Source of the DNA: Eledone cirrhosa
Taxonomy: Eukaryota
DNA: 64,000 nucleotides
Reading direction: 5' to 3'
Assembly: GCA_964016885.1 (NCBI GenBank)
Contig: OZ024740.1
Span: 232,128,001-232,192,000 of the forward strand
Position numbers and translations under genes: made by a program. Shown here piece by piece: positions 3,602 through 43,648 of this stretch. The notes under the pieces were generated by a model. That model was not told where the DNA came from and ran no database searches. It saw only the letters and a program-made list of their open reading frames with translations. Each line of letters opens with the position of its first letter. Positions within the stretch are counted from its first letter, which is position 1.

Positions 3602-3804
3602 TTATAGAAGGAGCTTCTACAGGACTAGTACTGTTTCATTCAGATGAAATCTTCAGGAAGCTTCAAGAGCTTCCTGAAGATTTCATCTGAATGAAACAGT
3701 GCTAGTCCTGTAGAAGCTCCTTCTATAAAATAAAAAAATTTACTCTGCCATGTATTGAGTACCTTACTTACTGTGGTTATCCCCGACTCAACCCGGGACC
3801 TACG
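3602..3804. mobile_element. (TA)n-flanked foldback element carrying two divergent hammerheads (family A)
   Basis: 61-bp arms 3602-3662 and 3668-3728 with one mismatch and spacer tcaag; unique 3' tail to about 3804. Confidence 0.85.
3667..3719 (+). ncRNA. Type I hammerhead ribozyme (mirror copy at 3611-3662, minus strand)
   Basis: gagcttc CTGAAGA t-ttca-tc-tgaa-t GAAA CAG-tgctagtc-CTG TA gaagctc; perfect 7-bp stem I, 4-bp stem III. Confidence 0.8.
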
Positions 3805-3841
3805 TATATATATATATATATATATATATATATATATATAT

Positions 3842-4010
3842 AAGAAAAAGTATGACCCCGACGGCAGAGCTCAAGCCGTTTCGACGGCTATTTCTGGACT
3901 GAAATAGCAGTCCAGAAATAGCCATTTCTTATTTCCCACTCTACTACCCTAAGTATTGAGTACTCTGGTCCGTTATGGTCCGTCTGGTTCCTTACCACAA
4001 TTCCTTTGTT
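3842..4010. mobile_element. Family B (TA)n-flanked element, internally deleted foldback
   Basis: Homologous to 10611-10808 and 19255-19441. Confidence 0.75.
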
Positions 4011-5027
4011 ATATATATATATATATATATATAAATGAAGTATTTCCGTAGGAAAGGTAAAGGAAAAGAGAGTGCTCTGTGTAGGCTACAGAGTTTTTTT
4101 AGTTATGTAATAAACAACACAAGATAATTATTTCATTTACCGGTGGTTTCTTCAAGACAGATACTTATGTCTGTCTTTTGGGAGGGTCATGCTGCCAATA
4201 TATAAAGTATGATATATCGAAGTTTCATTTCAAAAGGTTTTTATTGTGTTTCGATTGTTACTTATACTTCACAGGTGATTGTCACGAGATCCTGTCACGA
4301 GATACACCGGACTTCAGCATCGATCCACTCTTCTAATGTGAGGACTCAATCAAAATATTTGCATGTAACGTTTCACTTTAAACCTCCCGAGAAGATCGAT
4401 GCGGCATTGGGGTTTATTTCATCAATGAAGATATCGAAGCAATCACCTGTGACATATATATAATGACGTTTATCACTTGAATAAAAAAAAAAAAAAAAAG
4501 TATTAGAACTATGTTTACGATTCGAATGTATTGCTTTCGACCTTCAGATGTCTAATCAAGATATAGAGTTAATTGTTATTAAAGAGGTTGTCAAACCGAA
4601 ACTTCACTGTGTATATTTTCGCATCTCTTTACATAACGCTGTTTTGCTTTAATTTCGGAATATATTTGTTCTATATATAAATTTCTGCGATTCTGTCACG
4701 ACAGGTAAAGAGAGAGGAGTAGTTTGACTACCTCATACTACTCCCCCCTCTTTACGTTTGCTGCCTGCGTGAATGTAAGTGTGTGTAAAAGGAAGGAAGG
4801 GGATGGTGGAAAATTACAGCTGTCAACGGCGTGTATGTGTATTTGTGTCGATGTAAGCGTGTCTCTATTTGCACATTTTATTTTTTATACTCATACATAT
4901 ATATGTATGCATATGCACATACACACACGCACACACCGACATGTCAGCGTATGGAAAGAATTTCTAATTATAACATATTTCTCAATTTTTCGTCTTTAAT
5001 TTGGATCATCTCTTGAACATCTATATG

Positions 5028-5130
5028 AGGCATGGGCAAACTTTTTCGAGAAGCGGGCCGCATGAGATGTGACTCATCATCAGGAGCGTCGCAAACGATA
5101 ATTTACATTCGTGTCCGCATTAAAAAAAGG
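5028..5130 (+). mobile_element. Possible hAT/Charlie-type MITE end
   Basis: aggcatgggcaaact...gcgggccgcat resembles hAT-Charlie termini; second TIR not seen. Confidence 0.4.
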
Positions 5131-5149
5131 GTGGTAACTCAATTTGTTT

Positions 5150-39788: not shown

Positions 39789-39987
39789 AGTTATATATAT
39801 ATAGAGTTATATTTGGGGATGGTCATATTGTTATAATATTCCCAGAAATAATAAAAAAAAAACACACCCACTGTTTGGTTTCGATTTGCTTTCGTTTTTT
39901 TTTTATATCTCCCTAGTTAATTTAGCTGGCAATAAATGTTTATCATTGATTGACCAATGGTTAAACATACATATATAAATATATAGT

Positions 39988-40027
39988 GTATCAAAGTTCT
40001 TTCGATGTGTGACATCATCAGTGGTAC
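39988..40027 (-). ncRNA. Family I hammerhead with deleted stem II
   Basis: gtacca CTGATGA tgtcacacatc GAAA G-aa-C TT tgatac. Confidence 0.5.
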
Positions 40028-40521
40028 TATTATGTTTCCTCCCATTGTATTGTAATGTCTATGCCATTTTTATTTAATCAATTTATTTATTTATATTTAC
40101 CTTAGGTCAGTATTGTGTGTTTGGGCAGGGCTGTCGCTTTTTCTGTTCAACTTTGGTTTTCTTAGTTCCATTTCAGTTGCTTCTCTGATTCGTCTACCTG
40201 TTGAGTCATTCATATATACATATATATATATATATATATATATATATATATATATATATATATATATATATATATATATATATATATATATATATTTATT
40301 AAAATAAAAGATTAAAGTTTAAGCAAAGAATCGTTGCTTTCACCCTTAACGGGATCTTCTGAAACTAACAAAGTCAATCTGTAAACGCAGAAGTGGATAT
40401 TATATATATATATATTACTATATATATATTACTATATATATATTACTATATATATATATATATATATATATATATATATATATATATATATATATATATA
40501 TATATATATATATATATTTAT

Positions 40522-40710
40522 ATAAGGATTTAACCAGTCTTAAACTGGTAAGACCATTGTTGATCAGAGTACTCGATGCGTTGGATAGTAGAGTGGGAAT
40601 ATTAGAAACAGTAGGGGCCCGATGGCTGAGCCCTTGCCATTTCGACAGCCAATTCCAGACTGTTGAAGCGGCAAGAGTTCTGCAGTCGGACCCCCACCTC
40701 TTTCATTCGT
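40522..40710. mobile_element. Old family B foldback copy
   Basis: Degenerate match to 19255-19442. Confidence 0.6.
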
Positions 40711-42460
40711 ATATGTTTATATATATATAATATTTTCTTCAGGAATGAATAAGAGAGAGACTAGGTCTAAATGAGTACGTAATACATATTAATCCTTTTA
40801 ATTCGTAGATAATGTATATTTGTTGCGAAAGAAATGTATTGATACACTTTTTTGAAATAACCAGAGTTTTGTTAATTTTAACGTAGCATTCAAAATATTC
40901 AACAGCTTTTATTTCTACGTGTAATGGTTTAATGTCGAACCGAATTTTATGCACAGACACACGAACGGTGAAAAATAACCGTTCAGCATTGAGATTGATC
41001 GAATATTTTTTATTGCGAAGGAAATCCTCCGGCCTGACGTAGAGATAACCCTTTACAAAATAGCTTCATGGAATTGCTTGTCACAAATGTCTGACCTGCA
41101 TGAAACATTGACATAATTATGGAGAAACATTACCTCACAAACATCAATGTAAAGTTCGAAGATCAATTTTAAAAATCTTTCTAAATTTACTACATTCGTA
41201 TTCTTAATATACGTTAATCTATATTTTGTCCTCGCTCTATCTATTTTTGAAACGGTCTCTCCGCAGTTCACCCTATTCTCATTCTATATTGTGCTATCTT
41301 TCTTGTGAAAAATCTTTCTTTATCCAATACAAATGCTTATTTCTGTATATATATTGACAGTCAGCTTTCTTGATGAGTTCCTTCGAAAGAAACAGGTTTA
41401 GTCTTGTTGAAACCTTTTCTATATTATATATATATATCTATTATATATATATATATAATATATATATATATAATATATATATATACGCGTGTGTGTGTGT
41501 GTACTTATTTTTATGTCTGTATGTGTGTATGCATTTTGCATGTGATTACATATGTGTACGTGCATATTACGTGTGTGTGTGTACATAAGATGTGTTAGTA
41601 TTATAGCGAAAACAGCCGATCCAATATAAATTGTAAATAATTAATTGAACAAGAACCGAGTGAAAGGAAAATAAAACCAAAAGAAAATACATTGATTTAC
41701 TATTTAACTTTGACACTTCAATAGAAACACAGACGTATGTCCTTGCCGATGTGTGTTATGTAAGCGCGTTTGTGACTGTATGCGTTTCAGCCAGAGTAAT
41801 TGTATGTGTGTGAATCAGTGTGAGTTGTATGAAGCTCTATGAGTGACAGCTGGTGTGTGTGTGTGTGTGTATTTTCTGTTTGTATTTGTGCGTGTCTGAA
41901 TGTGTATGAGTGTGTATGCGTGCTAGTGTCAGTGTGAATGTAGGTATATGTATGTATGTGTCATTATGTGTGCATGTGAGTCTATATGCAAATTTATATT
42001 AGTATGTGTGTGTGAGTGTGTGTGTGTGTTTGTGTATCTGTGTGTGTGTGTGTTTGTGTGTGTAGCTATATTTAAAATATATGGGGGTATGATGTAAGTC
42101 TACCCCTCTGTGAATGTCTGATATTTTGTACATGCCTATATGCAGGAGTGTATGTAAATCAAACCGTCTTTAAAGTGCTCTTATATTCGGTCTTTACATG
42201 AAAGATGCTTGGAGTCCGTTCTAATATTTATATGGTTTTTCTTACAAACATTTTGCACGCACACACTCAAACACATAATCATAAATATGTAATATGAGAC
42301 GTGTGCACATGAGTATATATATATATATATATATATATATATATATATATATATATATATATACACGTATATGTATGCATATACATACACCACACACACA
42401 CACACACACACATACACACACACACACACACACACACATATATATATATATATATATATA

Positions 42461-43648
42461 TAATGAGAGGTACACAAATATATGTGTATTCATACATATA
42501 CATGCATATATACAATTTTTTTTTTCACAAGTATGTGAGATTGTGTGTTATCGACCTTAATCAGTGTTGCTCTATGATTATGAGAGACAAGATAATCGGA
42601 ATAATTAAATTGGCTCGATATCAGAGCTATGCAATATATTATAAAGTAAGAAGAAATATTAGACATAAATAAATACCTATTTTTTCTTCAAATTCCCGAC
42701 TGTACAGTTTCATGGCTACTATGCAAAAATCCTACATCATAAAGATGCAATATTGTTGTGAGGTAGGCCAACTTTGCAAGGGAACCCCTCAGGGAAAGAA
42801 CAATTTCAAACAGGTCTGCATCGCGCGAGAGAATCTCGAAAAGGCGGAGGGAAACACTATCACGTGATTCAGTGGTCAAGAAATGGGATTAAATCCCTTG
42901 TAGCGGTGAAAAATATCTCAGAAAGCGGAGGGGATGTTGATACGATACCGAAGCAACAGAAAGGTGGTAAGGTTGACTGGAAGTGTATATAGTATTTGCT
43001 TGAAATAGGTATTTATTTATGCCTAATATTTCTTCTTACTTTATAATATATTACATAGCTTTGATATCGAGTCAATTTAATTATTCCGATTATCTTGTCT
43101 CTCATAGTCATAGAGCAACACTGGTTAAGGTCGACAACACACAATCTCAGATACTTATGAAAAAAATATATGTGTATATATATGCATGTGTATATATGTA
43201 TACACATATTTGTGTACCTCTCATTACTATCTCTAACTCCCTCACGGTAGAGTAACCACGGAAGTATAGTGTCTGCTTTCAAGCAAATACTATATACACT
43301 TCCAGTCAACCTTACCACCCTTCTGTAGCCTCTGTATCGTATCAATATCCCCTCCGCCTTCTGAGATATGTTTCACTGCTACAAGGGATTTAATCCAATT
43401 TCTTGACCACTGTATCACGTGATAGTGTTTCCCTCCGCCTTTTCGAGATTCTCTCGCGCGATGCAGACCTGTTTGAAATTGTTCTTTCCCTGAGGTGTTC
43501 CCTTGAAAAGTAGGCCTACCTCACAAAAATGTTACCTCCCTATAATGTAGGATGTTTGCATAGTAGCCACGAAACTGTACAGTCGGGAATTTGAAGAAAA
43601 AATAGGTATTTATTTATGTCTAATATTTCTTCTTACTTTATAATATAT
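42461..43648. mobile_element. Head-to-head, circularly permuted copies of a ~597-nt HHR unit (family K)
   Basis: Minus part 42461-43005; plus part 43003-43648 with ~49-nt terminal direct repeat 597 nt apart. Confidence 0.85.
43497..43590 (+). ncRNA. Type I hammerhead, U3-A8 variant with long stem II
   Basis: gttccc TTGAAAA gt(a)ggc(c)tac..gtagccac GAAA CTG-ta-CAG TC gggaat; the minus twin (~42693-42786) reads TTGCAAA. Confidence 0.72.

Follow-up and report, generated by a model that had tools for sequence, protein, structure and literature searches.

A 64 000-nucleotide stretch of the Eledone cirrhosa genome (GCA_964016885.1, contig OZ024740.1, positions 232,128,001 to 232,192,000, forward strand; hereafter the window) raises the question of how foldbacks are made whose two arms are joined at their 5' ends. 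Fourteen of them, carrying hammerhead ribozyme (HHR)-like sequences, were listed in a preliminary description of the window and are treated here as copies of Penelope-like elements (PLEs) or of hammerhead derivatives of PLEs without coding capacity. In PLEs, head-to-head is the most frequent arrangement and the tail is found on one of the inverted pseudo-long terminal repeats (pLTRs) (Arkhipova, 2013, PMC3846280). The inverted-pLTR, head-to-head pattern was reported in all clades, and the origin of the inverted repeats and one-sided tails was named as open (Craig, 2021, PMC8557442). The answer reached here is that the two arms were very probably primed at two fixed sites of the element.

Two sets of sequences were counted. 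An unselected sample of 1.264 Mb comprised the window, 100 kb of flanking sequence to its left and right, and ten blocks of 100 kb taken without regard to content. About 200 search loci of 3 kb each (numbered L), found with family queries, are biased towards copies near the query. The genome is AT-rich (3.0 Gb), and (TA)n runs are abundant in the window. Reference sequences were built for 14 families seeded in the window and for one control, a 187-nt repeat labelled short interspersed nuclear element (SINE)-like through what we take to be a B-box-like motif. Sense was assigned from the HHR core in the 14 references and from coding remnants in families F10611, F23860 and F26831; the sense of the open reading frame (ORF) was that of the HHR in all three families showing both. 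For polarity, a pair was defined as two adjacent opposite-strand arms of one family, separated by at most 100 nt and with no (TA)6 between them. Self-BLAST of the unselected sample gave 194 local inverted pairs.

All 14 listed sites were confirmed as inverted pairs; relative to the HHR-like core, the left arm is antisense and the right arm sense in each. The preliminary description had wished for a genome-wide tally of polarity; in the sequence sampled here, polarity was not random: directly joined pairs were head-to-head in 100 cases and tail-to-tail in none in the unselected sample, and 198 and 0, respectively, in the search loci. Nine direct tail-to-tail matches in a first tally lay in a low-complexity TATG part of F13557 and were filtered out. 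Across a TA run, two tail-to-tail pairs were counted in the unselected sample, and 16 tail-to-tail and one head-to-head in the search loci; these tail-to-tail neighbours are as separate insertions would give. The eight SINE-like control pairs were evenly split (four head-to-head, four tail-to-tail). The tail arm lay equally on either side (38 : 34, left versus right). Head-to-head polarity is not new and was already published (Arkhipova, 2013, PMC3846280; Craig, 2021, PMC8557442). Within the window, an old F42461-like HHR element (38860-39281) apparently ends in a tail-to-tail palindrome (39084-39281) with arms 95% alike, centred on only (TA)5. Its orientation was read from weak similarity, and it lies outside the library and was not counted; it may break the polarity rule or consist of two insertions that share a single TA.

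Each family with enough copies showed two 3' ends, site 1 at the end of the tail and site 2 at its start, separated by a tail of 60-176 nt depending on the family. Site 2 lies 11-211 nt past the predicted HHR cleavage site, and TA comes next in the template. Arm ends fell within 3 nt of one of these sites in 433 of 596 cases, although 6-34 TA dinucleotides per family were available there. The preliminary description had one arm keeping the tail and a short arm stopping at an AT-rich point; the former stands, but the end of the short arm is a fixed, family-specific site. Site 1 is combined with site 2 in 13 of the 14 listed foldbacks; the right arm of the 20600 foldback ends in mid-tail.

Among 298 pairs, 236 joined a site 1 arm to a site 2 arm, one was site 1-site 1, seven were site 2-site 2 and 54 had an unassigned end; heterotypic pairing was thus found in 236 of the 244 pairs with both ends assigned. 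The corresponding numbers for the unselected sample alone were 72, 0, 4 and 24. Solo copies ended at site 1 in 173 cases, at site 2 in 173 and elsewhere in 118. As solo copies end at site 2, this site therefore appears to be a priming site in its own right. With independent choice, half of the pairs would be homotypic (p 1e-59), and the pair and solo counts together therefore indicate that the site choices of the two arms are not independent. Pairs made up about a third of the insertions in the unselected sample (100 pairs versus 202 solo pieces). No common structure was evident in the tail folds. Strict two-site pairing, together with the non-overlapping inversions and sense-edited templates described below, is new relative to the literature found; the search returned no paper proposing two-site dual priming for PLEs, older subscription reviews being outside its scope.

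Three arrangements were noted beside these counts. In block C4a (16393-17080), a site 2-site 2 foldback of F10611 is present twice, in inverted orientation, around another foldback. Family F21367, with an HHR (window 21367-21625, minus strand), has nine fragments in the unselected sample, none of them in a foldback, and no second site was defined for it. At L307 and L308, the F21114 tail alone is found in tandem repeats after a non-overlapping inversion.

The foldbacks and related features of the window are the following (strands in brackets).

3602..3804: F3602 foldback; site-2 arm 3602-3662 antisense, sense arm 3668-3804 with the 82-nt tail, 5-nt central insert.
3841..4009: nearly overlap-free inversion of F10611; 3841-3907 (-) ends at site 2, 3926-4009 (+) carries the tail.
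10609..10807: F10611 foldback; site-2 arm 10609-10668 (-), tail arm 10670-10807 (+), a private variant in both arms.
10886..11282: F23860-type foldback, listed as 10975; tail arm 10886-11112 (-), site-2 arm 11141-11282 (+).
12113..12510: F13557-type foldback, listed as 12105; site-1 arm (-), site-2 arm (+).
13556..14889: tandem 424-nt unit with HHR, retrozyme-like; site-2 arm 13556-14031 (-), two-unit site-1 arm 14037-14889 (+).
14949..15178: nearly overlap-free inversion of F35525; 14949-15057 (-) ends at site 2, 15108-15178 (+) carries the tail.
15542..15938: F15719 foldback; tail arm 15542-15800 (-), site-2 arm 15836-15938 (+).
17902..19142: F17908 foldback; site-2 arm 17902 to about 18665 (-), tail arm 18697-19142 (+).
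19256..19441: young foldback of F10611 with 99% identity between arms; 19256-19388 (-) carries the tail, 19388-19441 (+) ends at site 2.
20384..20560: F20400 inversion whose arms do not overlap; 20384-20493 (-) ends at site 2, about 20500-20560 (+) consists of tail alone.
20605..20959: foldback of F20600; minus-strand arm ending at site 2, sense arm stopping within the tail.
21025..21246: F21114 foldback; tail arm 21025-21177 (-), site-2 arm 21179-21246 (+).
21657..22782: tandem 501-nt unit with HHR; site-1 arm 21657-22222 (-), site-2 arm 22223-22782 (+).
23851..26733: long foldback of F23860 with 93-96% identity between arms; 23851-25036 (-) ends at site 2, about 25037-26733 (+) carries the tail.
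25033..25430 (+): GIY-YIG-type endonuclease remnant with the CxCX5C linker, a Hydra-clade feature, within the 23860 tail arm.
25562..25748 (+): SINE-like copy of the control family, a later insertion in the 23860 tail arm.
26831..27344: F26831 head-to-head pair (family with a CCHH-type endonuclease); end of the left arm not at a start site.
35525..35723: F35525 foldback; site-2 arm 35525-35588 (-), tail arm 35589-35723 (+).
35793..35921: F21114 inversion whose arms do not overlap; 35793-35861 (-) ends at site 2, 35865-35921 (+) consists of tail alone, and 31 nt of element sequence are absent between them.
42461..43648: unit of 593 nt in tandem, its HHR degenerate; 42461-43005 (-) ends at site 1, about 43003-43648 (+) at site 2.

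The extents of the arms were compared in 190 non-tandem pairs, i.e. 207 minus 17 selected through a foldback-centre query. These 17 were also excluded from the microhomology and arm-similarity analyses and were included in the pairing and diagnostic-site counts. The site-2 arm reached further 5' in 62 pairs, the tail arm was longer in 37 and both were equal in 59; overlap was at most 15 nt in 32 pairs, of which 23 had none at all. Snap-back of a tail-primed cDNA would leave the second arm nested in the first, and 94 of the 190 pairs could therefore not be made by it. The share of such pairs was 37/84 in the youngest copies, then 27/49, 22/40 and 5/14, with no steady rise with age. The spread of 5' ends was wider for tail arms (in F21114, interquartile range -68 to -4 versus -71 to -60 for site-2 arms), as would be expected if tail-primed reverse transcription had to displace the other cDNA. 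Of the two routes offered in the preliminary description, priming by both cut strands followed by joining of the cDNAs is supported, whereas simple snap-back fails in about half of the pairs.

The initial list lacked four inversions whose arms overlap slightly or not at all (3841, 14949, 20384 and 35793). In the F17908 foldback, the apparent spacer is antisense family sequence (74% identity with L012) and is part of the site-2 arm, which in the 5' direction extends beyond the tail arm by about 450 nt. The different phases at which the arms start at 21657 and 42461 had been taken to favour twin priming; both fit dual priming on a tandem RNA, but 42461 is not discriminating. The tail arm at 21657 ends 19 nt beyond site 2 of the upstream repeat, and the phase shift fits the copying, without overlap, of two stretches of one tandem RNA. 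In the SINE-like control, two close head-to-head pairs with overlaps of 7-10 nt hint at occasional twin priming.

Arms differed from each other at 389 of 8975 sites, and in 109 of 135 pairs an arm was more similar to its own partner than to the median other copy. Arms from different subfamilies, expected by the preliminary description if there were two templates, were not the rule: 427 of 439 diagnostic comparisons at five F10611 subfamily sites agreed (234 expected), so that arms templated by different loci are rare. Conversion between arms could contribute to this likeness. No mutation bias between arms was found (176 versus 182). Clustered A>G changes, probably ADAR edits, were informative in a few copies. 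L334 has six A>G at the identical six sense positions of both arms and no other change in the overlap, a pattern unique among 40 scored candidates; in L338, two of two A>G are common to both arms. As the edits are all A>G in the sense orientation, the template would therefore be a sense RNA, contrary to antisense self-priming and to hairpin read-through. In the F3602 copies L334 (the same as L223, about 1440-1640), L336, L338 and L218, the clustered A>G lie mostly where a foldback transcript would pair, which suggests that edited hairpin transcripts act as templates.

Inverted microhomology at 87 insert-free junctions averaged 1.55 nt, versus 0.74 nt in a jittered null (maximum 1.21 in 2000), and was at least 3 nt in 20% of them versus 6% in the null. 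Perfect centres were found on short palindromic words (GTAC, AGCT, CATATG). The centres differ between copies, with 16 kinds in 22 copies and 12 in 12 (copies picked via the tail side). The (TA)n reported at the foldback ends was recovered as (TA)4 at the left end of all 14 listed foldbacks and at the right end of 11; (TA)4 flanked both ends of 194 of the 236 pairs, one end of 36 and neither of six, against a background of 10%. In non-TA targets, direct repeats of 8, 9 and 11 bp resembling target-site duplications (TSDs) were present in three of nine pairs, within the published PLE TSD range. The self-complementarity of (TA)n, earlier invoked as the cause, accounts for priming by both strands but not for fixed, paired start sites.

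Stacked insertions from different families occupy the same (TA)n tracts, of which some are longer than 300 nt (19440-19742, 36683-37016, 59340-59796), and each insertion seems to leave targets for the next. The 5' ends cluster tightly within families (F10611, F21114, F3602, F35525, F20600, F23860), often just before the HHR core or in stem II, and small tandem repeats of the 5' end occur at L153, L165 and L211. Such clustering possibly reflects fixed RNA ends, or stalling of the reverse transcriptase (RT) with repeated jumping.

A putative type I HHR-like motif was located near the 3' end of all 14 references using our own descriptor (core, GAAA, stem III, NUH, stem I). The cores of F10611, F15719, F21114 and F42461 are degenerate, and no family reached the gathering threshold in an Rfam search. 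An RNA dimer held by a palindromic stem III, considered in the preliminary description, is not a requirement: by a crude test, such a stem is present in only 6 of the 14 references, and families whose stem III is a long hairpin fold back freely (F10611 with 117 pairs, F21114 with 32, F3602 and F21657). All copies span the predicted HHR cleavage site. No ribozyme dimer need be assumed.

F10611 forms the 3' end of an element that retains remnants of an RT (YRDD motif) and of a C-terminal GIY-YIG endonuclease (EN) (L052). EN remnants were also found in F23860 (window 25033 onward) and F26831. The F10611 and F23860 elements have the CxCX5C linker given for the Hydra clade (Craig, 2021) and combine these features of that clade: this linker, no CCHH, an HHR and a (TA)n target. 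The F26831 EN, with CxxC/two cysteines, is of CCHH type and belongs to another clade. Homologues numbered 274 (best E 1e-46). Pfam gave nothing significant for six ORF fragments, no coding remnants were seen in the other 11 families, and neither the full ORF nor the N-terminal RT part was recovered for the Hydra-like elements. With an RT carrying a GIY-YIG EN, an HHR, tandem or inverted pLTRs, an optional tail and TSDs, the elements are EN-containing (EN+) PLEs. F13557, F21657 and F42461 have tandem units of 424-593 nt with a predicted HHR and resemble non-LTR retrozymes. L052 (about 4900-8806) also contains two long fragments of Hydra-like PLEs as a head-to-head pair; each arm has RT and EN, the arms are 89-92% alike, and the pair adjoins an F13557-like HHR.

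The mechanism that we consider rather probable is that the PLE enzyme cuts both (TA)n strands and primes each end at one of the two start sites, mostly on one sense RNA. A staggered cut would provide two 3' ends, each of which would prime at one start site via 2-4 bp of TA pairing, and both cDNAs would be extended toward the 5' end of the RNA. PLE RT is not known to have RNase H. A site-1 cDNA passing site 2 would displace the other cDNA and give overlapping arms; one stopping before site 2 would give an inversion without duplication. The 3' ends of the same-sense cDNAs could then be joined by short self-complementary microhomology or by end joining, followed by fill-in. Priming of a single end would yield a solo copy with or without tail. 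When copying from two RNAs is included, dual priming at two fixed sites is, all told, very probable. A wider proposal, for which the chances seem slightly short of even, is that EN+ PLEs normally insert by programmed twin priming, with a dimeric RT-endonuclease, two encoded start sites and one uncleaved sense RNA. The optional tail, inverted pLTR and head-to-head polarity would then be one phenomenon, which would have seeded on the order of 100,000 hairpins, with ADAR-edited transcripts as further templates.

Several observations weigh against dual priming on one RNA. Eight homotypic pairs are present; doubtful calls among them were retained (L258, whose tail has an internal deletion, and two C4a pairs that are one duplicated event). 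In F26831, a tail-less reference had produced eleven further pairs that seemed to be site 1-site 1; these were reassigned. Ends were assigned with a tolerance of ±12 nt to sites defined from the same data. An asymmetry of 94 versus 37 pairs (p 7e-7) was dropped as proof, as a re-test in a detection-symmetric window reduced the excess of longer site-2 arms to 53 versus 36 (p 0.09). Short site-2 arms are poorly detectable (seven more were rescued among 154 site-1 solo copies), and trimming of the palindrome centre at the moment of insertion is possible. No sharp overall pile-up of tail-arm 5' ends was seen at site 2 (12, 11, 9, 5, 8, 7 and 6 in 10-nt bins from -40 to +20), F21114 alone hinting at one (4 of 28 ends at -9 to -2); 167 of the 190 pairs therefore need displacement or a second RNA. 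Unaligned bases are present at 103 of 190 junctions, in part 5'-end repeats and in part sequence beyond the references. For F21114 and F26831, the likeness of the arms carries no information, and none of the ORFs found was intact. Edits are discordant in L336 (four A>G shared, two neighbouring sites differing), L218 (one shared, three differing), and L339 and L341 (one A>G in a single arm only). Two separate RT passes are therefore favoured, with room for two RNAs.

Two RNAs of the same locus might indeed have been copied in one asymmetric ribonucleoprotein dimer with one site per subunit. The overlap of most pairs, the missing pile-up and the discordant L218 and L336 speak for this, as does the AlphaFold dimer of PMC11167929, and same-locus RNAs would share subfamily variants too. 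We nevertheless regard it as unlikely, since the L334 edits are identical in both arms, 23 pairs lack any overlap, strict site 1-site 2 pairing demands extra asymmetry and the palindromic stem III is not required. Snap-back in an extended form would directly make the 96 of 190 pairs with equal arms or a longer tail arm: a cDNA started at the tail would pair with itself, be copied as far back as site 2, be cut there or anneal to the other end of the target, and be trimmed asymmetrically at its centre. Such snap-back also fits the shared variants, L334 and the non-significant symmetric test, and the tail has been ascribed to EN-mediated resolution (Craig, 2021, PMC8557442). However, the other 94 pairs would need an extra deletion, including 37 of the 84 youngest and with no age trend; 173 solo copies end at site 2; the 17908 site-2 arm is the longer by about 450 nt; and site 2 is an in vitro start site for Poseidon (PMC11167929). 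Snap-back is accordingly held to be improbable.

Dual priming on one RNA has also to be set against spread of foldbacks as units, in which the hairpin transcript of an existing foldback would be read through from the tail to the 5' (UA)n. One perfect centre common to 6 of 22 young F10611 copies, the 40 scored loci with both arms returned by a centre-spanning query and the confinement of the L334 edits to the would-be paired part, suggesting hairpin source RNAs, would agree with it. Such read-through predicts T>C on the antisense arm and none was found, the edits being A>G in sense on both arms; moreover, the centres mostly differ, subfamily variants are present in both arms, and only a few variants specific to one arm recur, at G/C or CpG sites. 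This makes unit spread very unlikely. A published PLE model is self-priming on antisense RNA at a terminal palindrome (Arkhipova, 2013, PMC3846280). It accounts for the head-to-head polarity, and many centres do lie on short palindromic words; yet it yields neither non-overlapping inversions nor two fixed, paired ends, and A>G rather than T>C in sense points to a sense template if ADAR is the editor. It would be surprising if it explained these copies. Finally, some palindromes are 100% identical, as assembly or library foldback artefacts would be, but the arms are on average 4.3% divergent, end at sites specific to the family and never include flanking DNA; later insertions (the SINE-like copy in 23860) and target duplications are present, and the control family shows no polarity. 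An artefactual origin is next to negligible.

Two known systems resemble the one described here, and the in vitro data on the first of them fit dual priming. The anole Poseidon protein (PAc) cuts and extends both strands of an AT-rich target in vitro, uses uncleaved RNA, is predicted to be a dimer and has two internal RT start sites that bound the tail; in the main text of that report, the start sites are not linked to inverted copies (Frangieh, 2024, PMC11167929). The families described here share the two start sites bounding the tail and the dispensable HHR cleavage, as copies span the predicted cleavage site, but unlike Poseidon they are Hydra-like or CCHH-type and mostly non-coding. In L1 twin priming, both target ends prime on the RNA and a head-to-head 5' inversion results (Ostertag and Kazazian, 2001, via PMC9148063). 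The second site is variable, internal and chosen by complementarity to the target in L1, whereas here it is fixed per family and element-encoded; L1-like little or no overlap was seen in 32 of 190 pairs, and the remainder overlap (duplication). The PLE foldbacks are thus twin-priming-like without having the L1 form.

Like published EN+ PLE pLTRs (PMC3846280, PMC8557442), these copies have an inverted 5'-truncated copy joined at its 5' end, a one-sided tail and (TA)n targets, with TSDs of 8-11 bp (published, 8-10 bp). The tails differ (60-176 nt versus 30-40 nt), and what is added here is the counted pairing, the non-overlapping inversions and the apparent sense template. F13557, F21657 and F42461 share with non-LTR retrozymes (bioRxiv 10.64898/2026.07.22.740005) tandem units, a predicted type I HHR and a likely status as non-autonomous PLE derivatives. 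These tandem families follow the same two-site head-to-head rule, and PLE target-primed insertion is therefore indicated for them; the other families are non-tandem 3' fragments.

PLE RTs are the sister group of telomerase. Reverse transcription of both insertion halves from two fixed internal sites would, if true, be a distinct integration chemistry, and the pairing rule makes the inverted-repeat question directly testable in the existing in vitro system. Outside the window neighbourhood, hairpin density was 63 pairs per Mb, i.e. roughly 190,000 foldbacks genome-wide if the sample is representative. Perfect hairpins are likely to be double-stranded RNA and editing substrates, and an assembly hazard. 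Elsewhere in the window, a frame at 1635-2099 (+), without a Pfam match, presumably resembles an N-terminal PLE RT, and the SINE-like repeat is abundant, being present at 25562-25748 and at about 20 other sites.

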